Positions 20,992-47,280 are shown, numbered from the stretch's first letter. The stretch is DNA of 64,000 nt from Candidatus Poribacteria bacterium (GCA_965215265.1 OZ244048.1:1056001-1120000); one strand, 5' to 3'. The notes: generated by a model from the sequence alone, not told the origin. Numbers and translations: made by a program.

Positions 20992-21174
20992 TTACGAGGC
21001 GATCCGTTCGGATTCCAACGCCAACCATTCTCCATAACCGCGCGGCATCTCCGCAGGCGGTTCTAATCCGGCTTCTTCGTGCCACCGGAGCAAAGGGTGC
21101 CGCCGGTCTGTTTGTGGTAGTTCGACCTGCCTACCATACGCCGCAGATTCAAAGATACCCATCATCATCTCAAT
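20992..21174 (-). pseudogene. C-terminal tail fragment of a second Gfo/Idh/MocA-like oxidoreductase
   Basis: Manual translation IEMMMGIFESAAYGRQVELPQTDRRHPLLRW...; compare LEIMLAIYES...VTMPM in 55599-56663. Confidence 0.55.
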
Positions 21175-24100
21175 TAGTGGTGACGTGCTGCCGTAGACGA
21201 AAAAAGTTCCCGACGTAGGAATTGTGCCGTATGCGAATCGTGCACGGTTGAAACCTCCTCCGGTGTACCGCTCGCGACAAGGTAACCGCCCCCTTTACTG
21301 CCCTCGGGTCCCAAGTCAAGAATCCAATCTGCCGATTTGATAACGTCCATGTTATGTTCGACGGCAATAATGGTGTTGCCTGCATCAACCAGCCGGTTGA
21401 GCACCTTGAGCAATTTCTGCACGTCGTCAAAATGCAGTCCTGTCGTGGGTTCATCCATGATATAGAGTGTCTCCGCGGCGTGTCTGCGCGAGAGCTCTTT
21501 GGCGAGTTTGATTCGCTGTGCTTCTCCGCACGAGAGCGTGGGTGCGGATTGTCCCAACTGGATATACTCCAAACCAACGTCCGCTAGCGTCTGGAGTGGA
21601 TGCTGAATCTTCTTAATATCTCTGAAGAGATGAAGTGCCTCTTGCACCGTCAATTGGAGAACCTCGGCGATGTTTTTTCCTTTGTAGCGTACGGAGAGCG
21701 TTTCAGCATTGTAACCGGTACTACCGCATGTCTCGCAGGGCACCCACACATCTGGCAAGAAGTGCATCTCAATCCGGAGGTAGCGGTGCCCATCACAGTC
21801 AGGACACTGACCATAGTTCAGATTGAAACTGAACCGACTTATATTAAACCCTCGTACTTTCGCATCCGGTAACGTTGCGAACAATTCGCGAATGTGTGTA
21901 AATACCTCGGTGTAAGTTGCTGGATTTGAGCGCGGGGTCTCGCCAATCGGTTTCCCATCCACGTTGATAAGTCGTCGAATGTTGCTTGCTCCCTTGATGC
22001 GTTGATAATTCGGCTTTTCGTCTATCTCCGTACCATCATCGCGTTTGTTTTGATGGCTCGTGTGTAAATCTCGTCGGAGCCCTTCGATATTTAGATTCAT
22101 TACATCTGATGTAATGTGCTGCGGTATACAAGAAAGTGCTGGGCGAAGCGTGCCATCGACAAGCGAACTTTTCCCAGACCCGGAAACGCCTGTCACGCAA
22201 ATTAACGTGCCAAGCGGCATCTTTACATCAATATCTTTCAGGTTGTTGGTTCGGGCACCTAACAATTCCAACCATTTTCCGTTGCCTTTCCGTCGGACCG
22301 ACGGCACCGGAATCTGCTTCGCATTGGAGAGATAGGCATGTGTTAAAGAGGTTCCTACCTTTTTTGCTCCGTTTTCAACGGTATCTGCTTTTTCGTATAT
22401 GTCAGCCCTATCAACGGTTGATGTTTTTTCGTATATTTCCGTACCATCATCGCTGATGTTTTGATGGCTTGTGTGTAAATCTCGTTCTTTCGTATCTTTC
22501 AGCCCATCAACGTCTGATGTTTTGCTATCCGTTGTACAAATCTCGCCAGAGCCATTCGAGTTTGAATCTAAACATCGGGACCCTCCGACGAGATTTGTAG
22601 TGGGTTGAACACTACAACTGCCTTTGTTGTGCAGCGATATACTAAAAGAGGTTTCTTGACTAAATGCGTGTGGTGTACCTATTGCAACAATTTCGCCGCC
22701 ATGTTCGCCTGCTCCAGGTCCGAAATCAATAATATGGTCTGCGGCTAAGATGGTGTTCCTATCGTGTTCAACAATTAGAACGTTGTTTCCGATGTCACGG
22801 AGGGACTTCATGGCCGAAATAAGCCGCTCCTGGTCTCGTGGATGCAGGCCGATGCTGGGTTCATCAAGGATGTAAGTAACGCCTGTCAACCCACTCCCGA
22901 GTTGGCTGGCGAGCCGGATACGCCGGATTTCACCTCCGGAAAGCGTGGGCGCGGGCCGATCTAACTCCAAATAGCCGAGGCCTATATCCTCAAGAAACTG
23001 GAGCCGCCTCACGGTTTGAGAGAGCAGTTCTGCCTCAAACTCAGGTGACGTGTAGCCGTGGAGGGTTGTATGTGTTGCTCTGGATGTTGCGGGACCCGTT
23101 AGCGGCTGACCTTGTTTTTCGTATATTTCCGTAGCATCACCGCTGAGGTTTTCTCTGTTTAGATTCATATTAATCTGCCTAATACGCCGGGTGAAGAAAG
23201 AAATAATCTCCGTAATTGGTAAGGCCATCAATTCAGCAATGGTTTTGTCAGAGAACATGACAACACTTGGAAAGGGTTGGAGTCGAGTTCCTTCGCAAGC
23301 AGAACAAACCTTGTGGCTACCGGCAATAGGAGAGTGTCCGCGCCCATCGCATTCAGTGCATGCGCCGATTTTGTTGTTAAAAGAGAAGTGCCGAGGCGTG
23401 AGTTGTGGAAAATTTTCACCGCACGATGTACACATCGCGTGCTCACTAAAGAAATATCGCATGGGTGGTTTGCCACGACTTGTAGAACGATTTCTTTCTT
23501 GCACTTTTTGGAAACAGATGAACCCTTCGCTTTGCAGGAGTGCCAATTCGACCGCTTCGGCGAGCCTGCTTTTTTCCTCATCCACAAGTTCCAGCCTGTC
23601 AATAACGAGGAAGATTTCGTGGTGTCTCCGTTTGTCAAGTTTCGGTGCTTCATCTAGGCGATGCATTTTGCCATTAATCAGGGCACGTACGAATCCTGCC
23701 TTTTGCAGCCGCCGGAATGCATCGATGAAATTCTCACTCCCTTTTAAGAGGCGTTCGATACGCGTGCCGCCGGCGAAATGTGTCATCGGAGCAAGCACAT
23801 CAATCCGCTGTTGATGCATGCTTTCAAAGACTGAGGTTGCAATCTGTTCTGCGGTCTGTGGTTGTACCACTTCGAGGCAATTCGGGCAATGTGGTACGCC
23901 CCAGCGTGCGTAAAGGGATCGGAGCCGATCGTGAATGTCGGTGATTGTCGCGACGGTAGAGCGTGGATTTTGGCTGGGGCTATCGTGTGAGATGGCAATA
24001 GCTGGGGAGAGCCCGTCAATGCTTTTAACCTTCGGTTTCTCCATCTGCCCGATGAATTGCCTAGCGTACGTATTGAGGGTTTCAATATAGCGACGTTGCC

Positions 24101-27100
24101 CTTCGGCATACAATGTATCCAACGCAAGCGATGTTTTGCCGGAGCCGCTGACCCCAGTAAAAGCAGTGAGTGTAAGGTGCGGGATGTCAATGTCAATCTG
24201 TTTGAGATTATTTTGTTCGGCCCCGCGTACGGTAATCATATTTTCGTCTTTTTCGTCTATCTCGGTACCGTCAATGTTTATGTTTTGATTCGGTGGACTG
24301 CCCGATTTTTCAAATTCACCACGGAGTGCTTGTCCGGTGTAAGAGTCTGGAACCTGGGCGAGTTGTTCAGGCGTACCAACAGCGACGATGGTTCCGCCGT
24401 TGGCACCTCCTTCGGGTCCCAAGTCTAGAAGATAATCAGCTGAATTAATGACTTCAAGATTGTGTTCAACAACGAGCACCGTATTGCCTGCATCAACGAG
24501 CCGGTGGAGGATGCGCAACAACTTATTGACATCATCAAAGTGCAACCCGGTGGTCGGTTCATCCAGCAGATAGAATGTTTTACCGGTGCTGCGCTTAGAA
24601 AGCTCACGGGCGAGTTTGATGCGTTGGGCTTCACCGCCGGAAAGTGTGGGTGCCGGCTGTCCCAATTTTATGTAATCTAATCCAACATCGTGGAGGAGTT
24701 GTAACGTTCTGGCAATTTTAGGAATATCAGCGAAATGGGCGAGCGCAACATCAACATCCATTTCGAGGACATCGGCGATACTTTTCTGTTTGTATTTTAC
24801 GGTGAGCGTCTCGCTATTGTATCGTCTACCTTCACATACGTCACATGCAACCCAGACATCAGCAAGTACCCCCATGTCAACCTGCTTGGCACCATTGCCT
24901 TTACATACCTCACACCTGCCTCCCGGTACGTTAAAGCTAAACCGCCCTGGTTTGTATCCACGCCATTTAGATTCCGGCAGTCCGGCGTAAAACGAACGGA
25001 TTGCATCAAACACTTTGGTGTAAGTCGCGGGATTTGAGCGGGGTGTCCGCCCGATGGGTGCCATGTCAATATTGATGATTTTGTCAATCACATCTGATAT
25101 CGGAACAGTCTTTCCGTCAATGATACCTTGGATGTCACGGTAGGCCCCCGGCACCGTCTTGGCGCGCATCAGGTCGCGGGCGAGGGCGTTATAGACAATA
25201 TCATGGACCAGCGAACTCTTTCCGGAGCCGCTGACACCTGTCACACAGCAGAATGTCCCAATAGGTATCTTCGGACTGATCGATTTCAGATTGTTTTGAC
25301 AAGCATCTCGGATATGCACCCACCGCGTCCCTGTAGTTCTGCGGGATTCGTTTTTGACAATCTGTTTATCCCCGCGCAGGTATTGTGCTGTGAGCGAATC
25401 ACTCTCTTTAAGGATTTGTGCGGGCGTTCCCATGGCTGTGATTTGTCCGCCTTGAACACCGGCCTTCGGACCGAAATCAACTATCCAATCGGCGATTAAC
25501 ATGGTGGCTTCGTCGTGTTCAACGACAATGACTGTGTTGCCCTGGTCGCGGAGTTTGCTAAGTGTTGTGAGCAGTCCTGCGTGGTCACGTGGGTGTAAAC
25601 CGATGCTAGGTTCATCAAGAACATAGATGACATCGCGTAACCCTGCGCCGACTTGGCTGGCAAGCCGGATACGTTGGGCCTCTCCGCCAGAAAGCGTGGG
25701 TGCGGAACGTGATAAAGTGAGATAGCCTAACCCGACATCCATCAGGAATTTGAGACGCCCACGAATCTCTTTTAGCAATTCGGCTGCGATAAATGCCTCA
25801 CGCTCAGGAAGTTGAAGCGTTTCAAAGAAAGGTGCGGCTTCTTCAATGGACATTTGTAGGACATCCGTAATTGCTTTGCCGTTTAGGGTTATCGTGCTAA
25901 CTCTAGGATTGAGTCTGCTACCGTTACAAGCTCGACACGGCATTTTCGCAAAAAAGTCGGGAAGGGATCCTTCTTGGATCGATGCATATTGTTCCTCATG
26001 CGCTGGGATGACACCTTGAAACCTGCCGCGATACCTTCGCCGTTTATGGCTTCCTTGTGAAGGTCTCGAAAAAGATAAGACAGTGTCACCCGTACCGTAA
26101 AGTATCGCGTGCTGTTGCTCAGGACTGAGTTCTTTCCAAGTGGTATTAATATTAAATTTGAGATGCTTGGCGAGCGTACGAAGGATGGCCAGATGCTGGG
26201 CATCTAATTTTCCCCAGAGCGTTATGGCTCCTTGTGGAATGGAGAGTGTTTCATCGGGGATAATTAAGGCTGGGGAGATGCCCATCAATGTCCCCAATCC
26301 GGTGCATTCAGGGCACATTCCTTGGGGCGTATTGAATGAGAAATGGCGTGGTTCTGGAATTTCATAACTGGCCTGACACTGGGCACAGGCGTATGCTGTA
26401 CTGAATAACTCATCTCTACCTCTTAAGTCGCTTTTTTCGTATATTTCCGTACCATCATCGCTGATGTTTTGCTGATTCGTGTGTAAATCTCGTCGCCCGC
26501 CCACCCAAATCCTCTCTCTGTTTTGATTCACATTTTCGTCTTTAGGGGGCATGATGTGAACAATGAGGTTTCCATCACCTATGTTCAAAGCGGTTTCAAC
26601 GGCTTCAGCGACACGACTCTCAATTGCAGAGGTAGTTTCTCTGTTTGCATGTTTGAGGATAAGCCTATCAACAACGATGTCAATATCGTGCCGTTGATTC
26701 GGGTTCAGGCGAAGTTCAGTTCCAATTTCATGCATCTCGCCGTCAATGCGAGCTCTCACAAATCCTGCTTTTCGAGCATCATCAAGTTCTTTGTTATGGG
26801 TACCGCGGCGTGCGCGAATGATAGGTGCCAAGATGAGGAGCCGGGTCCGGGCAGGAAAGTTGAGGATGTGTGCAGCAATATCTGCGCCGGTTTGTGAGCC
26901 GACAGGCTCACCACATTCCGGGCAGTGGAATTTTCCAACACGCGCAAATAAAACACGCAGGTAATCGTAAATTTCTGTCACGGTGGCAACCGTGGAACGC
27001 GGATTATGTGCTGTTGAACCTTGGTCAATAGCAATGGATGGAGCCAAGCCGATAATTTTGTCAACCTCTGGTTTAGCGAGCTGCCCTAAAAATTGTCGAG

Positions 27101-27380
27101 CATACGCTGATAGCGATTCTATGTACCGGCGCTGTCCTTCGGCATAAATGGTATCAATAGCTAAGGAAGATTTGCCAGAACCGCTAACCCCTGTAAAGAC
27201 AATCAACTTCCCTTTTGGAAGTTCAATATCAATATTTTGTAGATTGTGCTCTCGCGCCCCCTGTATTTTTATATATTTCCGTTTTTCGTATATTTCCGTA
27301 CCATCATCGCTGATGTTTTGATGGCTCGTGTGTAAATCTCGTCGCCCGCCCACCCAAATCCTCTCTCTGTTTTGATTCAT
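21174..27380 (-). CDS. uvrA: Excinuclease ABC subunit A, double-length (two fused UvrA units) with repeat-derived inserts
   Basis: Four GVSGSGK[ST] Walker A motifs, four LS[GC]GE signatures, zinc fingers, RSNPATYT twice. Confidence 0.95.
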   Translation of the reverse strand: MNQNRERIWVGGRRDLHTSHQNISDDGTEIYEKRKYIKIQGAREHNLQNIDIELPKGKLIVFTGVSGSGKSSLAIDTIYAEGQRRYIESLSAYARQFLGQLAKPEVDKIIGLAPSIAIDQGSTAHNPRSTVATVTEIYDYLRVLFARVGKFHCPECGEPVGSQTGADIAAHILNFPARTRLLILAPIIRARRGTHNKELDDARKAGFVRARIDGEMHEIGTELRLNPNQRHDIDIVVDRLILKHANRETTSAIESRVAEAVETALNIGDGNLIVHIMPPKDENVNQNRERIWVGGRRDLHTNQQNISDDGTEIYEKSDLRGRDELFSTAYACAQCQASYEIPEPRHFSFNTPQGMCPECTGLGTLMGISPALIIPDETLSIPQGAITLWGKLDAQHLAILRTLAKHLKFNINTTWKELSPEQQHAILYGTGDTVLSFSRPSQGSHKRRRYRGRFQGVIPAHEEQYASIQEGSLPDFFAKMPCRACNGSRLNPRVSTITLNGKAITDVLQMSIEEAAPFFETLQLPEREAFIAAELLKEIRGRLKFLMDVGLGYLTLSRSAPTLSGGEAQRIRLASQVGAGLRDVIYVLDEPSIGLHPRDHAGLLTTLSKLRDQGNTVIVVEHDEATMLIADWIVDFGPKAGVQGGQITAMGTPAQILKESDSLTAQYLRGDKQIVKNESRRTTGTRWVHIRDACQNNLKSISPKIPIGTFCCVTGVSGSGKSSLVHDIVYNALARDLMRAKTVPGAYRDIQGIIDGKTVPISDVIDKIINIDMAPIGRTPRSNPATYTKVFDAIRSFYAGLPESKWRGYKPGRFSFNVPGGRCEVCKGNGAKQVDMGVLADVWVACDVCEGRRYNSETLTVKYKQKSIADVLEMDVDVALAHFADIPKIARTLQLLHDVGLDYIKLGQPAPTLSGGEAQRIKLARELSKRSTGKTFYLLDEPTTGLHFDDVNKLLRILHRLVDAGNTVLVVEHNLEVINSADYLLDLGPEGGANGGTIVAVGTPEQLAQVPDSYTGQALRGEFEKSGSPPNQNINIDGTEIDEKDENMITVRGAEQNNLKQIDIDIPHLTLTAFTGVSGSGKTSLALDTLYAEGQRRYIETLNTYARQFIGQMEKPKVKSIDGLSPAIAISHDSPSQNPRSTVATITDIHDRLRSLYARWGVPHCPNCLEVVQPQTAEQIATSVFESMHQQRIDVLAPMTHFAGGTRIERLLKGSENFIDAFRRLQKAGFVRALINGKMHRLDEAPKLDKRRHHEIFLVIDRLELVDEEKSRLAEAVELALLQSEGFICFQKVQERNRSTSRGKPPMRYFFSEHAMCTSCGENFPQLTPRHFSFNNKIGACTECDGRGHSPIAGSHKVCSACEGTRLQPFPSVVMFSDKTIAELMALPITEIISFFTRRIRQINMNLNRENLSGDATEIYEKQGQPLTGPATSRATHTTLHGYTSPEFEAELLSQTVRRLQFLEDIGLGYLELDRPAPTLSGGEIRRIRLASQLGSGLTGVTYILDEPSIGLHPRDQERLISAMKSLRDIGNNVLIVEHDRNTILAADHIIDFGPGAGEHGGEIVAIGTPHAFSQETSFSISLHNKGSCSVQPTTNLVGGSRCLDSNSNGSGEICTTDSKTSDVDGLKDTKERDLHTSHQNISDDGTEIYEKTSTVDRADIYEKADTVENGAKKVGTSLTHAYLSNAKQIPVPSVRRKGNGKWLELLGARTNNLKDIDVKMPLGTLICVTGVSGSGKSSLVDGTLRPALSCIPQHITSDVMNLNIEGLRRDLHTSHQNKRDDGTEIDEKPNYQRIKGASNIRRLINVDGKPIGETPRSNPATYTEVFTHIRELFATLPDAKVRGFNISRFSFNLNYGQCPDCDGHRYLRIEMHFLPDVWVPCETCGSTGYNAETLSVRYKGKNIAEVLQLTVQEALHLFRDIKKIQHPLQTLADVGLEYIQLGQSAPTLSCGEAQRIKLAKELSRRHAAETLYIMDEPTTGLHFDDVQKLLKVLNRLVDAGNTIIAVEHNMDVIKSADWILDLGPEGSKGGGYLVASGTPEEVSTVHDSHTAQFLRRELFSSTAARHH

Positions 27381-28511: not shown

Positions 28512-28810
28512 TGCATTAATCGCCGCTTTATGCTGCGCTATGCCTAAGATATCTCCGACGATCTATAGATTGGCAGGATAAGGTAATCTTTGTCTCTCCT
28601 TTCAGGAGAGACAAGAATACCGAACCTGCCAAGATTTACACATGAGCCCTCAAAAGCATAGACGTGGACGGTACGGAGATATATAAAAAATTGTTGGGCT
28701 CCTGTAAGTGATTGAAGAATCATAACCTAGAACGGCTCAGACGAGATTTACACACGAGCTATCATTACATAGACGTTGATGGTACGGAGATATACGAAAA
28801 GACGAAAAAA
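28470..28810. repeat. Composite of family A arms with a family B hairpin inserted at 28562-28632
   Basis: Removing B restores CTCCGACGA|GATTT; 28734-28800 nearly identical to 59113-59179. Confidence 0.85.
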
Positions 28811-36113: not shown

Positions 36114-36385
36114 TACCGAACCTGCCATTCTCCTTTCAGGAGAGACAAGAATACCTTTTACCTGCCACCCACTGGGATAAGATTACCTTTTACCTGCCAC
36201 CTATAGGTTCTTTGTCTGTCCTTCAGGACAGACAAGATTATCTATAGATTGGCAGGATAAGGTTGAGAGATAGGTAGTTCACGAAAAAGAGAGGTTTCGT
36301 AAACTTACCTTTTACTCGCAACCCACTGGGTGTTGATGGTACGGAGAGATATAAAAATTTGATTTTAAAAGACTATACCTAAGGA
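36114..36385. repeat. Nested cluster of B-type hairpins and A fragments between convergent fumC and rpoC
   Basis: Multiple CCTGCCA ends followed by CCCACTGGG or CCTATAGG; TCTATAGATTGGCAGG; GTTGATGGTACGGAGAGATATAAAAA. Confidence 0.8.
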
Positions 36386-39300
36386 GTCTCCTCAGTGTCT
36401 GTAGATTCCAATTCTGATTGGCGTGGGGCGACATGCAGGTTCTGAAATTCGGAGAAGCCGCTGCCTGCGGGGATGAGTCTGCCGAGGATGACGTTTTCTT
36501 TCAATCCGAAGAGCGGGTCAGTTTGTCCGCTGACGGCTGCGTCGGTTAATACTTTTGTGGTTTGTTGGAATGAGGCGGCGGAGATGAAGCTTTCAGTGCT
36601 TAAGGCGGCTTTGCTGATACCTTGTAGGATGGGCTCGCCGGTTGCGGGTGTGCCGTTGTTTGCAGTGATGTCGGCGTTGACGCGATGGAATCGGTTGCGC
36701 TGGATCTCGTCATTGGTATGGAAAGGGGTGTCGCCGGGTTCAGTGATGCGTATTTTTGTGAGCATCTGCCTGACGATTGTTTCGATGTGTTTGTCATTGA
36801 TAATGCCTGCGCCATATACCTTTTGTACCTCATCGACGAGGTATGCTGAGACGGCTTCTTCTCCTTCAAGGGGTATGCCTTGGATGAGGGTTCGCCCGAT
36901 TTTAAGGATGTCGTGTGGGTTTCGGTATCCGTCTGTGAGCGGTTGCCCCGCGTTAACCCAGTCGCCTTCTGCAACGCGCCGTTTTTCGTCAGGGATTGGA
37001 TATGTGCGGCTTTCGTACCCGTCGTGGACGATGCGGTAGAGAGGAATGCCGGCTTTTGTTCCGACGGATTGGATGTATCCTTCAATTTCTGCGATGTCGG
37101 CAGCATCTTCGCGTTTTGGCCGGCGTGCTTCAAAGAGATCGGTAACGCGGGGGATTCCTGCAACGATGTCTCGGTTGACTGTTTTTTCATGGCGTTGTGC
37201 GATGGTGCTGCCTTCACGGATGGTGTCGCCTTCTTTGACGGAGAAGGAGTATCCTGCAGGTATGAGGTGTGGTTCGCGATGTCCGGTTGTGGTTTCGACT
37301 TCAATATGCATGCGTGCTGCGAGTTCGTCTGTATCGAATCCTGCATATTGTGCGATGGCATCTTGGTATGCGTCTTCCGACAATTCTGTGCCGACTTTGT
37401 GCGGGAAGCTGGGGTGGTGGACGCGGGTGACGGTGTAGTTCATTTGCTGAATCTGCTTTTGAATGGCGCGATACGCTTTTTCCTCTATTTCCTCTAAGAA
37501 GTTCTCCCCGCCCTGCGGGGTGAATTCCTTAACATCAGCGCTGCTGCTTTGATTCGATTCGCCCGCCCACCCAAATCCTTCCTCTGGAGTACGGGTGTCG
37601 GAAACGATGCGGTAGACGTTCTCGACATCAAAGGCTTTGTATTGGCGTTGAAGCTTCCGATATTCGTTTTCGGAGAGTTCGGTATCAACCGCAAGGTTGA
37701 GCTGGGGGTGCTGTACGCTGAGAACGCGGTATCGGGATGCTTTTATCTTCTGCTTGAGTTCTGGGTCGTTTTTTCGCTGTGCCTTATATTCGGCCTCTGT
37801 GAGTGCGTCGCCGTCTTCCATCTGATAGGTGCGTTGGACATCAAAGGCTTTGTATTGTCTGCGATAGGCGTTTGTTTCTTTTGGTGTCAATAACTCACCG
37901 GGTTGCAGGGGGAAGTCGGGGTGATGGACGGCTATGATGCGTGAGAAGCGTTCGGTTTCGATGGTACCGGTGTTGAGTTGCTTCTCTGTGGCTTCAAAGG
38001 CGGGGTATTGACGTCGTGCGTCACGGAATTCTCCGTCGCTGAGTAGGGTTCCGGGTTCGAGTGGACAGTCGGGATGATAGACGTAGGTGATGCGGTGGCG
38101 TAATTTGGGTGCATCAACTCCGGGGTATCGTCTGTGTGCGGATTTGAGTTCAGCTGGGGTTAAGATGTCGCCGACGTTGAGGGGGCAATCTGGATGATGC
38201 ACCTGGGTGACTTCGTGGAGGACGGTGTCGTTTTTCTTAACTTGAAAGGGCTGATGAGTCAGCCGTGCTGTCTCGTATTGTGCTTCGGTGAGGGTTTCGC
38301 CGGGGTGTAGTGGGGCATCTACGTTGACGACGTAGCTGGGCCTGGTATCCAGGTCAAAAGGGGTGAGCCAGGTGCGGATGTCTTCTTCTTCTACGTTGTG
38401 GTTAACGGCGAAGGGGAAGTTTTGCTGATGGCGGGCTGTGATGCGGTATAGCCGCTTAAAATTCCTATTTTTTTCGTATATTTCCCCACCATCAACGTCT
38501 CTGTTTTGCTGGCTTCGGAACCCTTCGATGTTTTCGTCGCCCGCCCACCCAAATCCTTCCTCTGGGGTGAGCTGTTGGGGGGTTAGGAGTTGGCCTGTTT
38601 GATTATCAAGGTAGCGCCATTCGCCTTCAAAGTGGGCATGGATGTTGGCTTTTATTTGTTCGGCCTCGGTTTGTGTCAAGAAGTCACCAACGGCGACGGG
38701 GATATCTGGATGTCGGACGGCTGTTACTTTGTATTGCTGGGTGACATAGATATTAAAGCCGTATTGGCTGCGTGCTGTGTCATACTGTGCTTGCGAAAGC
38801 CGGTCACCGGGACGAAGTGGACAGGTTGGGTCGTTGACGGTGGCGACTTCGTATTGCCAAGTGTTTGTCTCAAAGCCTTTATACCGTTCTACGTTTTCGG
38901 AGAACTGTTTTTCGCTGAGGAGTTCTTGGGGCTGGAGTTGGCAATCTGGATGGTTGACGTGTTTGACTTTGTATGCGGGTCCGTCGAGGTCAGCGCGGTT
39001 TTCGAGTGCGACCCAGAGTTCTCCTTCTTGTCGGACGGTGCTGCCGGGCAAGAAGTCTCGGAAATGAATGGTTCCGTTGACTTTTGCGTGAATTTGGCGT
39101 TGGGGTGCGTCGGATGCTTGTTCGACGGCACCGCCGGTGTGGAAAGTGCGCATGGTGAGCTGGGTGCCGGGTTCGCCAATGGATTGTGCGGCAATGATGC
39201 CGATGGCTTCTCCGACATCTGCGAGTTGTCCTGTGGTTAAGTCCGTGCCGTAGCATTTTGCACAGACACCCCGTTCGGTTTGGCAGGTAAGGACGGACCG

Positions 39301-42105
39301 GACTTTGACGACTTGTATGCCGGCCTGCTCGATTTTTGTGGCAGCGGTGGCGGAGATAAGGGTATCTGCGGGGACTAAGATGTCGCCTGTATGGGGGTGG
39401 ACAATGTCTTCGGCTGCGGTGCGTCCCTGAATTTTGAATGCGAGGGTTCCGCCGTCGGTTTTAAATTTATGGATGGATGCGAGCGTCTTGCAATCTTCGG
39501 CGCGAATGCGAACATCTTGGGCGACATCAACGAGTTTACGTGTGAGGTAGCCGGATGCAGCGGTTTTCATGGCGGTATCTACTAATCCTTTCCGGGAGCC
39601 GTAGGTTGAGTTGAAATAGTCGAGTACATCTAATCCTTCGCGGTAGGAACTTTTAATCGGTTCACTGAGGATTTCGCCGCTTTGGCGGGCTTTCAATCCG
39701 ACCAGGGCACTAATTTGCATGAAGGGGTTTTTGCGTGCACGTGCACCGCTGTCTGCCATGACATAGACTGGAGAAAATCCTTTGACGGCTTCTTGTCGTT
39801 CGATGAGATAGGTTTCGAGGTCAGGGAGCGTCTCAAAAAGGGTTGCTTCAAGTTTCTCAATGGCTTCAAACCATAGGCGAATTCGCTCGTTTTCCAGGTG
39901 CTCGGTGTTGGCAGTAGGTGCGGTGTTTATGAGGGTGTCGACTGCGGCTTGTGCTTCGTTGACCAGGGTGTCGCGGTTGGGCGGTAGGATGTAATCCTTG
40001 ATTGCGGGTGAGATTCCGCTGAGTGTAGCGTACTCAAAGGCGAGTTTCTGGAGGTTGCTGAGCACTTCGGTTGTCGACTGCGTTCCCAATTCGTGGAAAC
40101 AGCGATGTATGAGTGTCGATAATTCGCGTCCGCCTGCTTCCGCATTGAAGAATGGGATGCGTTGTCCGGAATGCGGGTCGGTCCATTCCAGTTCATCTGG
40201 GATGACTTGGTTCAAAATGACTCTGCCGACGGTAGTGAGAATCGGCTTTTCGTATAGTTCAGTACCGTCAGTGCTTCGGTTGTGGGTGAAGAAGAGTTGT
40301 ATGCTATCGTGAAGTTTCAATTGTCCAGCTGTGTATGCGGCGATGACCTCGTCTGGATGGGTGTAGCGGCGATAGTACCAGGGCCGGTTGCTGAGTTCGT
40401 CAAACGTGCTGAGTTTTTCTCTATTTAGATAGGCAGCATGGAGCTGTCCTGCGTCGCCATCATGGGATGGCAAGGCTTTGGTGAGAAAACTGGGGCCGAG
40501 GACCATGTCGAGTTCAGGTACTGCGATGGGTTCTCCGTGAGAGGGCTTTAAGATGTTATGAGAACTGAGCATGAGCAATTTGGCTTCTGCTTGTGCTTCG
40601 GCAGTGAGGGGTACGTGAACGGCCATCTGGTCTCCATCAAAATCGGCGTTAAAGGCTTTGCAGACGAGGGGGGGGATGCGTATAGATTTCCCTTCTACTA
40701 ATACAGGCATAAATGCCTGGATGCCGAGCCGATGTAAGGTCGGTGGACGATTGAGTAAGACAGGATGCTCTGCGATAACTTCTTCAAGTACATCCCAGAC
40801 GGGGCTTTCGGAATGTATATGTTCGGTCAAGAATTTGGCACGTTTCATGGTGCCGGTGTAGCCGTATGCTTGTAGGCGCTCGATAATAAACGGTTTGAAG
40901 AGTTCGACGGCCATGCGTTTTGGGAGTCCACACTGGTGGAGTGCGAGTTCTGGTCCGACGACGATAACACTCCGCCCGGAGTAGTCAACGCGTTTGCCGA
41001 GGAGGTTCTGACGGAAACGTCCGACTTTTCCTTTTAGAATGTCTGATATGGATTTGAGGGGGCGGCTGCCGGGTCCGGTGACGTATCTACCGTGTCGTCC
41101 ATTGTCAAGATATGCGTCGACGGCTTCTTGTAGCATGCGTTTCTCATTGCGTAAGATGACCTTTGGTGACCGGATGAGTATTAATTTGCGTAGCCGGTTA
41201 TTGCGGTTGATGAGTCGGCGGTATAAATCGTTTAAGTCGCTGGTGGCGAATCTGCCGCCATCTAATGTGACAAGTGGGCGCAGGTCTGGTGGGATGACGG
41301 GGAGTACGTCCAAGATCATCCACTCTGGGCGCTGGTTAGATTCGATAAAGCCTGCAAGCTGCTTGAGTTGTTTAGAGAGTTTCAAGCCTTTTTGATGGCT
41401 GGTGGTTTCTTCTAAAGCTTTGCGAATTTTTTTCTGCTCTTCTTCCAAATCGATGTCTGAAAGGAGCTTCTTTATCACTTCTCCCCCGGCTTCGGCTTTG
41501 AAACGCCCAGGGTATTGCTGTTTTGCTTGTTCGTATTGTGCCTCGTTTAAGACTTGATGGGGTTCAAGTATGCCTTGCTGTGCTAGTTCGTCGTCGACTT
41601 CTGTGACGATGAAGGCCTCGAAGTAGATAACGCGTTCAACTTCCTTTGAAGAGAGTTGACAGAAGGTTCCGATACGTGAGGGGATGCCTTTGAAAAACCA
41701 GATGTGGGAAACGGGGGATGCGAGCTGGATATAACCCATCCGTTCGCGTCGGACATGCTGTTTTGTGACTTCAACGCCGCATCGATCGCAAATAACGCCT
41801 TTGTGCTTAATGCGTTTATACTTTCCGCAGTTACATTCCCAATCTTTATGGGGCCCAAAAATGGCTTCGCAAAAGAGCCCTTCTGGCTCGGGTCGGAAGC
41901 TACGGTAGTTAATGGTTTCTGCTTTTTTGACTTCGCCGCAGCTGCAGGTGTGCATTTCTGGGCAGGACCAGGTTTGCGGGTCCGGCGGTTCGTTTTGCTG
42001 ATGGGCACCTGTTTGCAAGGTGCTCCGACGTTTGCAACAGGTGCGTTTCACGAGTCTTTTTATTTCGTCTGCGGAAGAGAGTCTAATCGAAATCTTATCA
42101 AACAT
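36379..42105 (-). CDS. rpoC: RNA polymerase beta-prime subunit with ~650-aa trigger-loop insertion
   Basis: GLFCEAIFGP, NADFDGDQMAV, GEPGTQLTMRTFH, GLKENVILGRLIPAG; likely start MFDKI at 42105. Confidence 0.97.
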   Translation of the reverse strand: MFDKISIRLSSADEIKRLVKRTCCKRRSTLQTGAHQQNEPPDPQTWSCPEMHTCSCGEVKKAETINYRSFRPEPEGLFCEAIFGPHKDWECNCGKYKRIKHKGVICDRCGVEVTKQHVRRERMGYIQLASPVSHIWFFKGIPSRIGTFCQLSSKEVERVIYFEAFIVTEVDDELAQQGILEPHQVLNEAQYEQAKQQYPGRFKAEAGGEVIKKLLSDIDLEEEQKKIRKALEETTSHQKGLKLSKQLKQLAGFIESNQRPEWMILDVLPVIPPDLRPLVTLDGGRFATSDLNDLYRRLINRNNRLRKLILIRSPKVILRNEKRMLQEAVDAYLDNGRHGRYVTGPGSRPLKSISDILKGKVGRFRQNLLGKRVDYSGRSVIVVGPELALHQCGLPKRMAVELFKPFIIERLQAYGYTGTMKRAKFLTEHIHSESPVWDVLEEVIAEHPVLLNRPPTLHRLGIQAFMPVLVEGKSIRIPPLVCKAFNADFDGDQMAVHVPLTAEAQAEAKLLMLSSHNILKPSHGEPIAVPELDMVLGPSFLTKALPSHDGDAGQLHAAYLNREKLSTFDELSNRPWYYRRYTHPDEVIAAYTAGQLKLHDSIQLFFTHNRSTDGTELYEKPILTTVGRVILNQVIPDELEWTDPHSGQRIPFFNAEAGGRELSTLIHRCFHELGTQSTTEVLSNLQKLAFEYATLSGISPAIKDYILPPNRDTLVNEAQAAVDTLINTAPTANTEHLENERIRLWFEAIEKLEATLFETLPDLETYLIERQEAVKGFSPVYVMADSGARARKNPFMQISALVGLKARQSGEILSEPIKSSYREGLDVLDYFNSTYGSRKGLVDTAMKTAASGYLTRKLVDVAQDVRIRAEDCKTLASIHKFKTDGGTLAFKIQGRTAAEDIVHPHTGDILVPADTLISATAATKIEQAGIQVVKVRSVLTCQTERGVCAKCYGTDLTTGQLADVGEAIGIIAAQSIGEPGTQLTMRTFHTGGAVEQASDAPQRQIHAKVNGTIHFRDFLPGSTVRQEGELWVALENRADLDGPAYKVKHVNHPDCQLQPQELLSEKQFSENVERYKGFETNTWQYEVATVNDPTCPLRPGDRLSQAQYDTARSQYGFNIYVTQQYKVTAVRHPDIPVAVGDFLTQTEAEQIKANIHAHFEGEWRYLDNQTGQLLTPQQLTPEEGFGWAGDENIEGFRSQQNRDVDGGEIYEKNRNFKRLYRITARHQQNFPFAVNHNVEEEDIRTWLTPFDLDTRPSYVVNVDAPLHPGETLTEAQYETARLTHQPFQVKKNDTVLHEVTQVHHPDCPLNVGDILTPAELKSAHRRYPGVDAPKLRHRITYVYHPDCPLEPGTLLSDGEFRDARRQYPAFEATEKQLNTGTIETERFSRIIAVHHPDFPLQPGELLTPKETNAYRRQYKAFDVQRTYQMEDGDALTEAEYKAQRKNDPELKQKIKASRYRVLSVQHPQLNLAVDTELSENEYRKLQRQYKAFDVENVYRIVSDTRTPEEGFGWAGESNQSSSADVKEFTPQGGENFLEEIEEKAYRAIQKQIQQMNYTVTRVHHPSFPHKVGTELSEDAYQDAIAQYAGFDTDELAARMHIEVETTTGHREPHLIPAGYSFSVKEGDTIREGSTIAQRHEKTVNRDIVAGIPRVTDLFEARRPKREDAADIAEIEGYIQSVGTKAGIPLYRIVHDGYESRTYPIPDEKRRVAEGDWVNAGQPLTDGYRNPHDILKIGRTLIQGIPLEGEEAVSAYLVDEVQKVYGAGIINDKHIETIVRQMLTKIRITEPGDTPFHTNDEIQRNRFHRVNADITANNGTPATGEPILQGISKAALSTESFISAASFQQTTKVLTDAAVSGQTDPLFGLKENVILGRLIPAGSGFSEFQNLHVAPRQSELESTDTEETP

Positions 42106-42655
42106 TTTTATATATCTCCGTACCATCAAAGGTTATGTTGTGTGAAATCCGATGTAGATCTCGTCGGAGCCACTCTAGGTATAGCCTTTAAAATCATAAC
42201 ATCAAACGGCTCAGACGAGATTTGTAAAGTTATTAATATAGCAGCAGCCTTGTTACGGGCTCCTGTAGACAAAAGATCTCCGTACCATCAAAGGTTATGT
42301 TGTGTGAAATCCGATGTAAATCTCGTCGGAGCCACTCTAGGTATAGCCTTTAAAATCATAACATCAAACGGCTCAGATGAGATTTGTAAAGTTATTAATA
42401 TAGCAGTGGCAGGATAGGTATTCTTTTTCACTCCTGCAAGGAGTGAAAAAGAATACCTATCCCTCAACCTTTTACTCGCCACCCATTGGGATAACCTTAT
42501 ACCTGCCATCTATAGATCGGAGGTTAACTAGGTATAGTCTTTAAAATCTAAACATAAACGGCTCAGACGAGATTTTCACAGGTTTTTATATAGCAGCAGC
42601 TTTTATTGGGCTCCTGTAGACAAAAGACCTTTATTGGGCTGAAATATACGAAAAA
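42105..42655. repeat. Tandem family A copies plus a B-type insert filling the rpoB-rpoC spacer
   Basis: ~42115-42245 repeated almost exactly at ~42276-42406; B-type block 42407-42516; partial third A. Confidence 0.9.
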
Positions 42656-45600
42656 TCGTCTTCAGTAGACGAATTAAGGACGACGTTGAGGCCGAGTCCT
42701 TGAAGTTCTCGGACAAGGACGTTAAAGGATTCGGGGGTTCCGGCGGGCTCGGGATTGAGTCCTTTAACAATGGCTTCATACATTTTGGCTCTGCCAAAAA
42801 GGTCGTCGGATTTGAGGGTGAGCATTTCTTGTAGGGTATAGGCTGCGCCGTATGCCTCTAATGCCCAGACCTCCATTTCACCTAAGCGCTGCCCCCCATG
42901 CTGGGCTTTGCCGCCTAACGGTTGTTGGGTGACTAGGGAGTAAGGTCCTGTTGCTCGGGCGTGCATTTTATCTGCGACGAGGTGATTGAGTTTTAAGAAG
43001 TAGACGTAGCCGACTGTGACTTCTTGTGCGAAGGGTTCACCGCTCCTTCCGTCGTAAAGGATGCTTTTGCCGGTGCGTTTGCTCCGTTCTGGTAAGTCGG
43101 TTTTGTGAAGGAGCTGAAAGATTTCATTTTCGGTGGCACCGTCAAAGACGGGTGACTCTGCGTAGATGCCGAGTTCGTGGCAAGCCCAGCCGAGATGAAT
43201 CTCCAAAATTTGTCCTACATTCATACGGGATGGCACGCCGAGTGGATTGAGGACGATGTCGACGGGGGTTCCATCGGGGAGGTAGGGCATATCCTCGACG
43301 GGCAATATGTTGGCCACAACGCCTTTGTTCCCATATCTGCCGGACATTTTATCGCCGACGGAAATCGGACGTTTGCTTGCGACATAGACTTTGACGAGTT
43401 TTACGACTCCTGGTTTGAGTTCGTCGCCTAATTCTAATTGATTAAGTGCACGTTCCCTATCTGCCTGGTAGGCGGCGATGCGTTCACTGGCGACTTCGGA
43501 GACGCGTTGGATGTATGCCATGGCGGCTGAATCTGTGACATAGATTTCTAAGGGGTTGATGCCGGGGGTGTTGAGGAGTTCTTCGGTTACCGTATCACCG
43601 GTGTCTCCAAGGGGTGCATGTTCTTCTTCAAAGTTTTCGTCTATTTCGTCTATCTCTATATCGTCAATTCCGGGGAAGACGGGCAATGCTAATGTGCAGC
43701 CGAGGAGGGCACGTCGGATTTCTTCATCTTTACGCCGTTGAACGGCTAATCTCTGCTCGCGAAATGTCTCTTCGATCTGCTTGAGTTTGGACTGGTATCT
43801 TAATTCGTCCACATCGACGGGTGCGCTGGCAACGGCATCGTCGGGGCTGACTGATGAGGGCACGGTGGTGCGTCTTTTGATGTTCTCCATTTTACGTGAG
43901 AAGACTTTGACATCGATGACGACACCTTCAAGTCCTGTTTTGATGGTGGTGGAGGTGTCGCGTACTTCGCGGTTGGCTTTTTCGCCGAAGATCACGTGCA
44001 GCAGTTTCTCTTCCGGCCCGTATTGGCTTTCTCCTTTTGGGGTGATTTTGCCGACGAGAATACTGCCGGGTCCGACAACGCTGCCGACACGGACGATGCC
44101 TTCTTCATCTAGCTGGGCGAGTCGCTGTTTTTTGACATCCGGGATATCGCGTGTTATTTCTTCGGGGCCCATTTTTGTGTCACGGGCCTCGACGATAAAT
44201 TCTTCAATATGGATCGAGGTGAAGGTGTCTTTGCGAATTAAGCTTTCGCTAATGAGAATGGAGTCTTCGTAGTTGTGTCCGCCCCAGGGCATGTAGGCAC
44301 ACAAGATGTTCCGTCCTAGTGCAAGCTCGCCGTGGTGTGTCGAGGGTCCGTCGGCAAGGATGTCGCCGGTGGAGACCCGGTCTCCGACAGAGACGACGGG
44401 ATGTTGATGGAAACACGTGCCGCTGTTACTCCGTTTGAATTTGTGGAGCTTGTAGACATCGTATCCCATTTCGCTTTTCTGTGTTTCTCCGATGTCTGCA
44501 TGGAGTGCTTCGCCTGTACGGATAATGATGTCATCGGCGGAGACGCTGACGACCGTGCCTTCTCGCTTTGCGATGCAGAGCGCACCGGAGTCACGTGCAG
44601 CGTGGATTTCCATGCCGGTGCCGACGAGGGGTGCCTCTGGACATAGCAGGGGTACCGCTTGGCGTTGATGGTTTGCGCCCATCAATGCGCGGTTGGCATC
44701 TTCATGTTCTAGGAATGGAACGAGTGCTGCGGAGACACCGACTATCTGTTCGGGGGCGATGCCGATATAATCAATCTCTGGGAGTGGGAGGTTGAAGACA
44801 TCTTCGCCTTTGCGCACCGGCAGCTTTTCGTCTTTTTCGTCTATGTCCGTAATTTGGTTGCCCTTGGTGCCCCGGGGTGCGATTTTTGCTGCGATTTTCA
44901 TGGTGGCTTCTTTGCCCGCGGTGAGGTATTCGATCGTGGGATGCGGTTTGCCATTAACAACTTTCCGATAAGGGGTTTCTAAGAAGCCGTATGGGTTGAC
45001 TCTCGCATAGCAGGCCAGTGAGGCGATAAGTCCTATTGAGGGTCCTTCTGGGGTTTCTAATGGGCACACGCGTCCGTAATGGGTATGATGTACGTCTCGA
45101 ACAGCGGCGGTTGCGCGGTCGCGTTGTAATCCACCGGGGCCGATCGCGGAGATACGTCGCTTGTGCGTCAATTCGTCAAGAGGGTTTATCTGTTGCATAA
45201 ACTGCGAGAGTTGGTTTGAGCCGAAGAATTCGCGTAGGGCTATCATCAGTGGCTTCGGGTTTATCAGTGCTGTCGGCACACAGGTGCGCATATCCACGGT
45301 GTTCAGTCGCTCCCGTGTGGCGCGTCGTATCTGTAAGAGTCCGATGCGGAATTGGTTTTCGAGAAGTTCGCCGATGACCCGGACGCGTCTATTGCCCAGA
45401 TGATCCAAGTCGTCTTTCGGTGCCTCTTCATTCTGGACATCTATCAAGTAATGGAGTGTTGCAGCGATGTCCTCTGGGCGGAGTGTGCGTTCATTTTCGC
45501 CGGGCTGTCCGTATATCGGGATGTGTGAGAGTTTTTCGTTGAGTTTATAGCGGCCGACCTGTCCTAAGTCATACCGATGAGGGTCGAAGAGGTGCCATTG

Positions 45601-47280
45601 TAGTTGCTTGTGTGCCTGCTCTACGTTTGGCGGGTCGCCTGGCCGGAGGACGGACTGGATTTCAAGCAATGCCGTTTCTTGCCTGCTCCGATTCGGTGGA
45701 TAGTCGGCGGCTTTGTCCCGTTCCAGGGTGTTGCGCAAGTAGCGGAGTTGTTTGGCCTTTTGTGGGTTGAGCACGGTTATCGCTTCAATGCCGGCACTTC
45801 GCAGGCGTTCGAGTTCTGTCTCAGTGAGGAGAGTGTTGGCTGTGAGCAGGGTTTCCCCCGTTTCAGGGTGTTTTATGGGTGCTGCACAGACGCTTCCGAC
45901 GATTTGGCTATTTTCGTCTATCTTGGTACCGTCAACGCTGAGGTTTTCTCTGTTTTGGATACCAGGCTGCGCGAGTTTTTCTGCAGAAAAGCTGCTGGGG
46001 TACTGGGCGTTCATGTGGGCGTATTCTGTGTCGGTGAGGAGCTGGCCGGGTTTTAACGGGCATCCGCTGTTGATGATTGCGAGGACGCGGTGTAAAGGTT
46101 GACTGGTCCAGTGTTTCGACTTTCTGCGGAACTTGGTGCGTTCTGCGGGGGTGAGTATTTGTCCAACCTTCAATGGTATGTCGTCGTCGACGGTTGTGAC
46201 TTGATAGCAGGACTCTGTTTGAATGCCGGGGTAGCAGTTGCGCAGCTGCCGGTAGTCCTTATTTGGTATGAAATCCCCGGTGGCGTGGGGGAAGTCGGGA
46301 TGAAATACGGCTGTAACCTGCCGGATGTGTTCGAAGGTCGTCCCTTTCCATTTCCGACGATGTGCGGCTTGTTGACGTGGGGTGAGTATGTCGCCTGGCT
46401 TTACGGGTGTATCAGCCGCGCTGACATCTACTACTTTGTATAGGACATCGGTGGTAAAGCCGGGGTAATCATTTTTAGCGTTTTTATGTTCGGATTTTGA
46501 GAGGAGTTGTCCGGGGCTGTATGGGCATGGTGCGGCGGTGATGTGTGTGACGCGCCAGCCGGATAAGACGGCTTGCTCGGGTTGTGCGAAGAGTTGTAGT
46601 ATATCTGCATCGGTTTCCCATCCGAGCGCGCGAAGTAGGACAGTTGCAGGCATTTTTCTGCGTTTGTTGAGTCGGACATATACCTGGTCTTTTGCGTCTG
46701 ACTCAAATTCAACCCAGGCACCGCGGTAGGGGATAATCTGCGCGGTCGGGGTATTCTGTCCTGAAGTCATGGCTTTTTCAAGAAAAATTACGCCGGGTGA
46801 CCGGTGAAGTTGGTTGACGATAACGCGTTCACTGCCATTGATAATAAAGGTCGCGGTTTCTGTCATCAATGGGACATCGCCAAAATAGACATCCGATTCT
46901 CGGATATCCACGATGTGGGGTTCATCGCTGTCGGCATCCTTCTCACAAACGAACAACCGGAGACGGGCAGTGAGGGAGACCTGGTAATTGACACCGCGTG
47001 CAACACAATCCTCTAAAGCATATTTCGGCTGCCCAAGACGGTACGAGACAAATTCAAGCCGACTGATGTTATGATAGTCCAAAATCGGAAAGATTTCCTG
47101 AAAAACGGCTTGAAGTCCAATAGCATCTCGTACTTCAGGCGCGATATCGCGCTGTAAGAAGTCGGTGTAAGAACTTTGTTGCGTCTCTATCAAATTCGGA
47201 AGGGGGGGCCGCTCCTCTGTTTTGGCAAAAGAGAGTCTTTTTCGTCTGTTCACTTGTGTTGTGCTCCCGTTGCGGTGCAA
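42631..47280 (-). CDS. rpoB: RNA polymerase beta subunit with repeat-module insertion
   Basis: FIINGSERV, GRVCPLETPEG, GDKMSGRYGNKG, GQRLGEMEVWAL. Confidence 0.97.
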   Translation of the reverse strand: MHRNGSTTQVNRRKRLSFAKTEERPPLPNLIETQQSSYTDFLQRDIAPEVRDAIGLQAVFQEIFPILDYHNISRLEFVSYRLGQPKYALEDCVARGVNYQVSLTARLRLFVCEKDADSDEPHIVDIRESDVYFGDVPLMTETATFIINGSERVIVNQLHRSPGVIFLEKAMTSGQNTPTAQIIPYRGAWVEFESDAKDQVYVRLNKRRKMPATVLLRALGWETDADILQLFAQPEQAVLSGWRVTHITAAPCPYSPGQLLSKSEHKNAKNDYPGFTTDVLYKVVDVSAADTPVKPGDILTPRQQAAHRRKWKGTTFEHIRQVTAVFHPDFPHATGDFIPNKDYRQLRNCYPGIQTESCYQVTTVDDDIPLKVGQILTPAERTKFRRKSKHWTSQPLHRVLAIINSGCPLKPGQLLTDTEYAHMNAQYPSSFSAEKLAQPGIQNRENLSVDGTKIDENSQIVGSVCAAPIKHPETGETLLTANTLLTETELERLRSAGIEAITVLNPQKAKQLRYLRNTLERDKAADYPPNRSRQETALLEIQSVLRPGDPPNVEQAHKQLQWHLFDPHRYDLGQVGRYKLNEKLSHIPIYGQPGENERTLRPEDIAATLHYLIDVQNEEAPKDDLDHLGNRRVRVIGELLENQFRIGLLQIRRATRERLNTVDMRTCVPTALINPKPLMIALREFFGSNQLSQFMQQINPLDELTHKRRISAIGPGGLQRDRATAAVRDVHHTHYGRVCPLETPEGPSIGLIASLACYARVNPYGFLETPYRKVVNGKPHPTIEYLTAGKEATMKIAAKIAPRGTKGNQITDIDEKDEKLPVRKGEDVFNLPLPEIDYIGIAPEQIVGVSAALVPFLEHEDANRALMGANHQRQAVPLLCPEAPLVGTGMEIHAARDSGALCIAKREGTVVSVSADDIIIRTGEALHADIGETQKSEMGYDVYKLHKFKRSNSGTCFHQHPVVSVGDRVSTGDILADGPSTHHGELALGRNILCAYMPWGGHNYEDSILISESLIRKDTFTSIHIEEFIVEARDTKMGPEEITRDIPDVKKQRLAQLDEEGIVRVGSVVGPGSILVGKITPKGESQYGPEEKLLHVIFGEKANREVRDTSTTIKTGLEGVVIDVKVFSRKMENIKRRTTVPSSVSPDDAVASAPVDVDELRYQSKLKQIEETFREQRLAVQRRKDEEIRRALLGCTLALPVFPGIDDIEIDEIDENFEEEHAPLGDTGDTVTEELLNTPGINPLEIYVTDSAAMAYIQRVSEVASERIAAYQADRERALNQLELGDELKPGVVKLVKVYVASKRPISVGDKMSGRYGNKGVVANILPVEDMPYLPDGTPVDIVLNPLGVPSRMNVGQILEIHLGWACHELGIYAESPVFDGATENEIFQLLHKTDLPERSKRTGKSILYDGRSGEPFAQEVTVGYVYFLKLNHLVADKMHARATGPYSLVTQQPLGGKAQHGGQRLGEMEVWALEAYGAAYTLQEMLTLKSDDLFGRAKMYEAIVKGLNPEPAGTPESFNVLVRELQGLGLNVVLNSSTEDDFSYISAQ

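Follow-up and report, generated by a model that had tools for sequence, protein, structure and literature searches.

How do both large subunits of RNA polymerase come to carry peptides that look like translated pieces of a dispersed DNA repeat? The question is raised by a stretch of 64,000 nucleotides (the window, G000:C1:1056001-1120000) from the genome of a Candidatus Poribacteria bacterium, in which rpoC and rpoB, encoding the beta' and beta subunits, lie on the minus strand. The genome under study (G000) is a single contig of 4,833,177 bp with 48% GC and a completeness of 95%, and we compared it with a complete genome of the same genus from a sister species (G001). Both genes contain in-frame DNA that is homologous to a repeat family of this genome, the added segments are absent from orthologues, the genes are intact and single-copy, and the same segments are present in independent assemblies. 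We consider it very likely that they are pieces of a selfish palindromic repeat that inserted in frame in RNA polymerase loops and persist there as passenger peptides without a required function.

Repeat-derived DNA in rpoC and rpoB

The first-pass annotation of this DNA had quoted repeat-derived peptides inside both subunits, and all of them were found in the translations (Table 1). We searched the 10.4 kb of the genome's own rpoBC coding sequence with two nucleotide profiles, one of the 77-nt repeat arm, trained on 183 seeds from elsewhere in the genome with the rpoBC copies kept out of training, and one of the arm's 3' end, built from 406 arm copies, all outside rpoBC. As a control, the same profiles were run against the rpoBC loci of 20 relatives, 259 kb in all. 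The arm profile recovered RpoC site 1 (38471-38515) at 23.0 bits (E 2.4e-7), the RpoB insertion (45911-45947) at 17.2 bits (E 1.6e-5) and RpoC site 3 (40247-40285) at 13.7 bits (E 1.9e-4), while the 3'-end profile scored the same sites at 27.8, 25.3 and 22.5 bits, the last with an E of 5.5e-7. The best control scores were 5.3 bits for the arm profile and 6.0 bits for the 3'-end profile, so that the repeat origin proposed for these main sites stands well clear of background. All three copies (3/3) lie on the coding strand. The DNA of site 3 has four ungapped genome matches within 8 mismatches, all of them arm copies, and shuffled queries gave none (0/10).

RpoC site 2 is built from other modules. 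It had been described as a D motif plus a C hairpin; the D motif, shared with intergenic copies, was recovered, and the hairpin is not of the family around 28582-28621 (D16) but belongs to a separate mini-hairpin family, with ~34 nt identical to three intergenic copies and a predicted fold at -19.1 kcal/mol. A 29-nt stretch is common to RpoC sites 1 and 2a and occurs nowhere else in the genome; one of the two copies was therefore probably derived from the other.

Two decayed remnants had also been proposed in RpoB, and here the lines of evidence part. The segment at 43634-43668 matches the arm copy at the UvrA junction (24241-24275) at 31/35 bases, its sole genome match within 8 mismatches (shuffles 0/10), and the 20 bases at 44825-44844 recur exactly in this UvrA-junction copy, with TAGACGAAAAAGACGAAAA occurring three times in the genome. 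In contrast, the 3'-end profile scored them at 3.5 and 2.2 bits, respectively, within the control range. Both remnants are probably repeat-derived on this pairwise likeness, although unproven.

Table 1. Genes, repeat-derived sites, repeat modules and modelled fragments, in coordinates of the window (A arm and D motif, repeat modules; pLDDT, predicted local distance difference test score; sister species, G001)
Feature	Position	Strand	Details
rpoC (beta' subunit)	36379..42129	-	ORF (open reading frame) of 1916 codons; Pfam Rpb1 domains 1-5
rpoB (beta subunit)	42631..47280	-	ORF of ~1549 aa; Pfam Rpb2 domains 1, 2, 3, 45, 6, 7
RpoC site 1	38455..38568	-	D motif (38538-38556), loop piece and 3' A arm with internal deletion
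RpoC site 1 peptide	38470-38568	-	TPEEGFGWAGDENIEGFRSQQNRDVDGGEIYEK
RpoC site 2 peptide	~37497-37590	-	TPEEGFGWAGESNQSSSADVKEFTPQGGENF
RpoC site 2a	37552..37590	-	39-nt insertion relative to sister species; D motif (37560-37578); peptide TPEEGFGWAGES
RpoC site 2b	37489..37532	-	GC-rich mini-hairpin (37495-37532); 33-nt insertion relative to sister species; peptide (KEF)TPQGGENFLEE
RpoC site 3	40229..40285	-	A-arm 3' part; peptide (N)RSTDGTELYEK; +5 codons relative to sister species
RpoC site 3 peptide	40246-40281	-	NRSTDGTELYEK
RpoB insertion	45904..45951	-	48 nt (16 codons); short-form A arm; peptide (N)RENLSVDGTKIDENSQ
RpoB insert peptide	45910-45954	-	NRENLSVDGTKIDEN
Possible RpoB arm-tail remnant	44825..44852	-	ITDIDEKDEK; +1 codon only relative to sister species
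Possible RpoB arm remnant	43634..43668	-	IDDIEIDEIDEN; +2 codons relative to sister species
Junction-spanning peptides of the RNA polymerase inserts			e.g. ..GIQNRENLSVDGTK.. and ..GFGWAGDENIEGFR..
Full A arm upstream of rpoC	42105..42179	-	60.6 bits; 3' end GGAGATATATAAAA adjoins rpoC ATG
Repeat arm, antisense to rpoB	42631..42669	+	last ~7 rpoB codons (FSYISAQ) and stop; 15.7 bits, E 7.1e-5
Double UvrA (comparison gene)	21174..27380	-	2068 aa; one ORF with two UvrA units, likewise in sister species
D motif, G-rich, 19 nt			GGATTTGGGTGGGCGGGCG; 24 strict genome copies, 2 in rpoC
Mini-hairpin, GC-rich, ~38 nt			word GGGGAGAACTT 20 times in genome
Modelled RpoB fragment	45616-46650		mean pLDDT 85.5; insert residues 233-247; pLDDT<50 at 230-239
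Modelled RpoC fragment, insert residues 204-236	37108-39177		mean pLDDT 78.7; pLDDT<50 at 206-237
Modelled RpoC fragment, insert residues 530-560	37108-39177		mean pLDDT 78.7; pLDDT<50 at 533-560

Both genes appear sound. Their reading frames are unbroken over 1549 (rpoB) and 1916 (rpoC) codons, and tblastn with conserved cores found one rpoB and one rpoC only in the genome. The rpoC ORF as called opens at a TTG (42129); the ATG at 42103-42105, which opens a 1908-aa ORF, is likely the true start, as judged from orthologues that begin at the equivalent Met. RpoC was present in 31/31 related genomes and is 78% identical between the two sister species. Its length is 1868-2287 aa within the family (f1) and 1411-1691 aa in the order's other families.

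We aligned the rpoBC genes of 18 genomes of the same family and 2 outgroups. In this presence/absence comparison, suggested in the first-pass annotation, none of the orthologues (0/20) carries the insert peptides. The RpoB insert is a clean insertion of 16 residues, missing from all 20. At RpoC site 2, PEEGFGWAGES and TPQGGENFLE are missing from the sister species and 16 other genomes, all with a short linker, and three genomes of genus g2 have a longer, unrelated insertion of their own. Codon alignment with the sister species gives gains of 48 nt in rpoB, 39 and 33 nt at rpoC site 2 and 15 nt at site 3, the last of which is a variable loop. Site 1 is a hypervariable linker whose counterpart in the sister species (~33-34 aa) is unrelated and encoded by single-copy DNA there; the repeat therefore replaced a linker in G000.

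The repeat itself is equally confined. Arm DNA was found in 1/31 genomes searched, G000 only, and in 0/30 relatives including the sister species, which dates the expansion of the family to after the split from that species. We also searched 1.84 billion representative proteins with a profile of the encoded peptide. The nine matches at E<=0.001 included no RNA polymerase subunit and no UvrA; they are 40-249 aa long and correspond to small ORFs over repeats or to N-terminal over-extensions. The refuting case named in the first-pass annotation, peptides conserved in distant bacteria without the repeat, has no instance among the 20 orthologues.

Public contigs of three other studies bridge the insert sites with 0 gaps, and the inserts are therefore not artefacts of the G000 assembly. 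Contigs of X7 cover 37300-42127 (22 substitutions over 4828 nt of rpoC) and 42795-46100 (10 substitutions), those of X9 cover 42628-46100 and 38099-38630, and those of X5 cover 38407-42127 and 45170-46100. No presence/absence polymorphism of the inserts was seen among these strains, which are ~99.5% identical, and the inserts are fixed among the strains sampled. One of the 22 rpoC substitutions between G000 and X7, at 40284, lies inside an insert and is uninformative.

Contig joints in the rpoB-rpoC spacer, or joining repeats, have short sides of 18-40 letters; we read them as cross-matches between repeat copies and rejected them as insert deletions. The short-read contigs of X5, X9 and X10 break at intragenic repeats, as they do inside rpoC near 37503-37524 and 38259-38407.

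The repeat family and the places it occupies

The repeats belong to a dense family of short repeats in the window. A window-wide repeat search grouped 18 copies into one family (D4), which includes 38469-38515, 40245-40291, 42103-42149 and 45909-45955, and placed 43634-43668 and 44825-44859 in another (D6). The 14-nt arm core has 183 exact copies in the genome, and their alignment gives an arm consensus of ~77 nt with the 3' end ..CGTTGATGGTACGGAGATATACAAAAAA. With the A-arm profile, nhmmer returned 579 genome matches at E<=0.01. Arms occur solo, as inverted neighbours less than 60 nt apart (49 pairs, forming units of ~170-200 nt) and as same-strand, tandem neighbours at the same spacing (104). 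The intergenic arm dimer at 42105-42250 folds into a long hairpin (-36 kcal/mol, z -3.3); within rpoB and rpoC, the mini-hairpin excepted, the copies consist of one arm or a truncated one. The window had no match in Rfam at the gathering threshold. In several A arms the mini-hairpin is nested at a constant position, after the GGT of GATGGTACGG (e.g. G000:C1:1213459, 4522358 and 1038064), behaviour that marks it as a small insertion element in its own right.

The claim that the shared unit is DNA rather than a protein motif is supported by the way in which these modules are read. RpoC reads the D motif twice as GFGWAG, UvrA reads it as IWVGG and a fourth ORF contains it antisense (PAHPNP), and 544/579 arm copies lie outside long ORFs. 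Two of the six frames of the arm consensus are free of stop codons, the hydrophilic sense frame being LRRDLHTSYQNISVDGTEIYKK, and in-ORF arm copies are mostly read in this same sense frame. The remaining 35/579 matches fall within stop-to-stop ORFs that are 150 aa or longer and leave 30 aa or more to either side of the match; many of them are 5' leaders read through from upstream, and true internal insertions are fewer.

Within the polymerase, the inserts fall at a restricted set of places. The extra mass of RpoC is a block of ~635 residues between TFHTGGA and IVAGIPRVTDLFEAR, in the trigger loop, where other bacteria have SI3. The block (rpoC 37100-39180) consists of repeated strand-helix units of ~45-50 aa (..V..V.HPD.PL..G..LT..EY....YPGF..), and matching units make up a block of ~230 residues in the RpoB lobe (45950-46650), the units of the two subunits resembling each other. 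RpoC sites 1 and 2 are linkers between such units; in RpoB, the insert occupies the lobe block's C-terminal junction, just before the segment aligned to beta residues 296-388 of 6j9e_C, and RpoC site 3 aligns to a loop within beta' residues 537-639 of 8i23_D. A Foldseek search of the PDB with a 690-residue RpoC fragment returned nothing at E<=0.001, with cyanobacterial SI3 entries only among the weak matches.

AlphaFold models based on 21-sequence alignments place the inserts in low-confidence segments (Table 1). In the RpoC fragment, the blocks beside the inserts have pLDDT values of 84-93, and the other two low segments are the cut ends of the trigger loop. In this structural check, suggested in the first-pass annotation, the inserts are predicted to sit in disordered coils between well-folded domains (pLDDT 85-93).

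Other enzymes of this genome carry comparable segments. Relative to the sister species, UvrA has clean repeat-derived insertions of 36 aa and 79 aa and three smaller ones, with one copy in an antisense frame. A fused alpha-beta glycyl-tRNA synthetase (GlyQS; G000:C1:4244340-4247525, L137) and a fused glycine dehydrogenase (GcvP; G000:C1:243879-246893, L133) each hold ~24-30 arm-derived residues in an interdomain linker, missing in 5/5 relatives for each protein. The suggestion that even essential enzymes accept these insertions is supported by these further cases, by the intact single-copy state of rpoB and rpoC and by the inserts found in independent contigs. The arm at the junction of the two UvrA units lies 10 nt upstream of an in-frame ATG. 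Another ORF of the window, of 520 aa with a PGA_cap domain (30731-32293, L138), has an arm copy close to its N-terminus and a second one situated between the domain's two matched stretches.

The same arm is found at gene starts. The rpoC start context is GGAGATATATAAAAATG in G000 and AAGAGGAATTAGCATG in the sister species, which has a different native ribosome-binding site, replaced by the arm in G000, and three more codons. Among the 468 arms whose 3' end is intact, 60 terminate at -2 to +4 nt from an ATG that begins an ORF of 100 aa or more, 35 of them at exactly +1, against 3/468 in a mirror control. The arm's GGAG is complementary to the 16S 3' end, which is the canonical CCTCC. By this placement and complementarity, the arm would carry a putative ribosome-binding site before start codons. 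Between rpoB and rpoC, the spacer (42106-42630) is 525 nt long and consists entirely of repeats, compared with 99 nt in the sister species; at least four repeat modules lie in it, among them a long hairpin and a 131-nt duplication that is nearly perfect. An antisense arm supplies the last codons of rpoB in G000, and the C-terminal tails found in orthologues are different.

Origin of the inserts and alternative explanations

In the explanation that we favour, a lineage-specific, modular, palindromic non-coding repeat would have multiplied in G000 after the split from its sister species, its modules being the ~77-nt A arm, the G-rich D motif and the GC-rich mini-hairpin. Most copies would have remained intergenic, and a few would have landed in, or been copied into, coding DNA. 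Such coding copies would have passed three filters: a length that is a multiple of three; a strand and frame free of stops, with the hydrophilic reading ..RRDLHTSxQNISVDGTEIYEK; and a flexible, non-conserved loop as the target. In RNA polymerase, the tolerated places would be linkers of the beta' trigger-loop insertion, one variable beta' loop and the junction of the beta lobe insertion. Neutrality of the peptides, and arrival of the DNA by transposition or by templated copying, are parts of this proposal that we infer.

Several points weigh against it. Site 1 and both remnants show little or no net length gain relative to the sister species; simple insertion is therefore insufficient, and insertion with deletion or patch-wise copying is needed. 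These replacement-type sites suggest either an insertion followed by a deletion or patch-wise copying from other copies. No target-site duplication can be defined: CCAAA flanks the rpoB insert on both sides, and the other sites show no consistent duplication. Nor did we find a transposase partner, since the 11 outward-facing arm pairs that enclose 0.6-3.5 kb hold ordinary genes, judged by inspection to be housekeeping from the first 60 residues of their ORFs, and none of these 11 revealed a parent insertion sequence with arm-like ends. The GGAG of the arm is lost in all three profile-supported rpoBC copies, which could reflect selection on them rather than pure neutrality. In the solved beta' of another bacterium, 8i23_D, the loop aligned to site 3 reads VDGVEK; likeness at the protein level is therefore weak evidence at this site, which rests on its DNA score. 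Finally, the proposal presumes that the insert peptides are translated and retained in the mature enzyme.

The VDGVEK loop also bears on whether the weaker sites (RpoC 40246-40281, RpoB 44825-44852 and 43634-43668) are chance likenesses in acidic, A-rich variable loops. We regard this as possible but on balance doubtful. The remnants score 2.2-3.5 bits where controls reach 6.0 and differ from the sister species by one or two codons only; against chance stand the 22.5 bits of site 3, whose four near genome matches are all arm copies, and the likeness of both remnants to a single UvrA-junction copy, one at 31/35 bases with no rival match and the other as an exact 20-mer. A broader alternative would give one repeat family two jobs, as a portable translation-initiation leader and as a linker cassette, perhaps spread by templated patch-copying. 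The leader would consist of a Shine-Dalgarno-like GGAG and an A-rich spacer ending at the ATG, and would have replaced native 5' ends in dozens of genes, rpoC included; the cassette would be the arm in its hydrophilic open frame, copied into interdomain linkers of RNA polymerase, UvrA, GlyQS and GcvP. Templated patch-copying, rather than classical transposition, would then account for the sites where one linker took the place of another of equal length. We offer this version tentatively and think it unlikely as a whole. If the intragenic copies were instead kept for a role of the DNA or RNA in place, be it as a signal for internal ribosome binding or pausing, as mRNA structure or as a G-rich, quadruplex-prone motif tuning rpoBC expression, the peptide would be a by-product. 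The complementarity of GGAG to the 16S 3' end, the excess of arms directly before start codons over the mirror control, the sense orientation of all profile-supported rpoBC arms and the private 29-nt variant common to both rpoC D motifs are in line with such a role. However, the three rpoBC arms lack GGAG and have no start codon after them, single intragenic arms fold no better than shuffles (z -1.1 to -1.8), and stop codons in 4/6 frames account for the sense-strand bias, which leaves this alternative improbable.

The recurrence of the hydrophilic ..DGTEIYEK in RpoB, RpoC, UvrA, GlyQS and GcvP might point to a functional protein motif, such as a binding tag, gained by several proteins, with the intergenic copies as decayed gene fragments. 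This is close to refuted: the great majority of copies fall outside any long ORF, the D motif is translated in more than one frame, antisense frames are used at the rpoB C-terminus and in one UvrA copy, the peptide profile recovers nine short proteins among the 1.84 billion representatives, and the inserts are predicted to be disordered. Assembly artefacts, or rpoB and rpoC pseudogenes, would be compatible with the breaking of short-read contigs at repeats, but every site is bridged without gaps in three other studies, both ORFs are unbroken and tblastn found no second copy of either gene, so this reading is refuted unless all public assemblies share one data set.

Relation to known repeats and wider meaning

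Insertion of a selfish repeat as a passenger has precedent. Passages of two reviews (PMC10969869, PMC3184786) describe Rickettsia palindromic elements (RPE) that occur in frame in dozens of unrelated genes and, with reference to Ogata et al. 2000, insertions judged compatible with protein fold and function; the words 'RNA polymerase' occur in neither text. As in those passages, we observe a family of short palindromic repeats (~100-150 bp) in many copies, a subset of which lies in frame in unrelated housekeeping genes and adds a conserved peptide. Unlike RPE, the family resides in a host with a 4.8-Mb genome of 48% GC and in none of the 30 relatives searched. Compared with the RPE described there, the intragenic copies here consist of lone or truncated arms or of separate modules and not of whole palindromes, an existing linker is replaced at some sites, and the arm also lies directly before start codons. 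By the descriptions in these reviews, the present case is a close parallel to RPE in another lineage, with a different modular family.

[quoted passage not shown] Those with open frames include ERIC, BOX, Coxiella QMITE and Anabaena MITEs, some of which form in-frame fusions according to the passages concerned (PMC10969869, PMC5896051). The arms resemble them in being small, non-autonomous and arranged as inverted repeats (the 49 close inverted pairs), with occasional in-frame fusions to host ORFs; unlike them, they show no definable target-site duplication and no parent insertion sequence that we could find, and they also occur solo and in tandem. They also differ from REP/BIME elements with RAYT, as the Y1 transposase (PF01797) had 0 matches in G000 (95% complete), while controls matched in 6/14 genomes.

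With respect to gene starts, passages of PMC3184786 describe Neisseria REP2 and Borrelia IR-A/IR-B as repeats immediately upstream of ORFs that carry a ribosome-binding site; REP2 has 23-26 copies, and those passages report no intragenic ones. The arms are similar to REP2 in ending at the start of ORFs and in carrying GGAG, a putative ribosome-binding site. They differ from REP2, as described there, in numbering hundreds of copies, in forming palindromic pairs and in including copies that are coding and in frame. Our literature search turned up no report of such repeats within rpoB or rpoC, and nothing on start-codon-adjoining repeats beyond REP2 and IR-A.

Lineage-specific insertions in bacterial RNA polymerase are known as SI3 in the beta' trigger loop and SI1/beta-i4 in the beta lobe. 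The repeat-derived peptides resemble them in position, since they lie inside the ~635-aa beta' block and the ~230-aa beta lobe block. The two layers differ in age: the large insertions are ancient and common to the whole family f1, whereas the repeat-derived peptides are recent and specific to G000.

These findings suggest that in-frame colonisation by selfish palindromic repeats, best known from Rickettsia, reaches a different bacterium with a mid-sized genome and touches the most constrained enzymes, including RNA polymerase in both its catalytic subunits, an aminoacyl-tRNA synthetase and UvrA. The inserts would provide a natural map of RNA polymerase positions that accept 10-33 extra residues. 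With the family missing from the sister species, the birth of protein segments from non-coding DNA should be traceable and datable. The presence of the same arm before many start codons suggests that one element may shape gene starts as well as protein linkers. In annotation, gene calls are inflated by such repeats, through ORFs extended into 5' arms, and short-read assemblies break at them.

Other repeats were noted alongside this family. Long tandem arrays with a 66-nt period, coding for leucine-rich-repeat-like sequence, and with a 36-nt period lie in the window at 17541-18731 and 19670-20245. Elsewhere in the genome, a unit of ~1.9 kb with a variable middle is present in ~10 copies (e.g. 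G000:C1:548309, 817745, 1195280 and 4828951), and each copy starts with a DNA-methyltransferase-like ORF (..DLIYIDPPF..) that ends after 118-123 aa.

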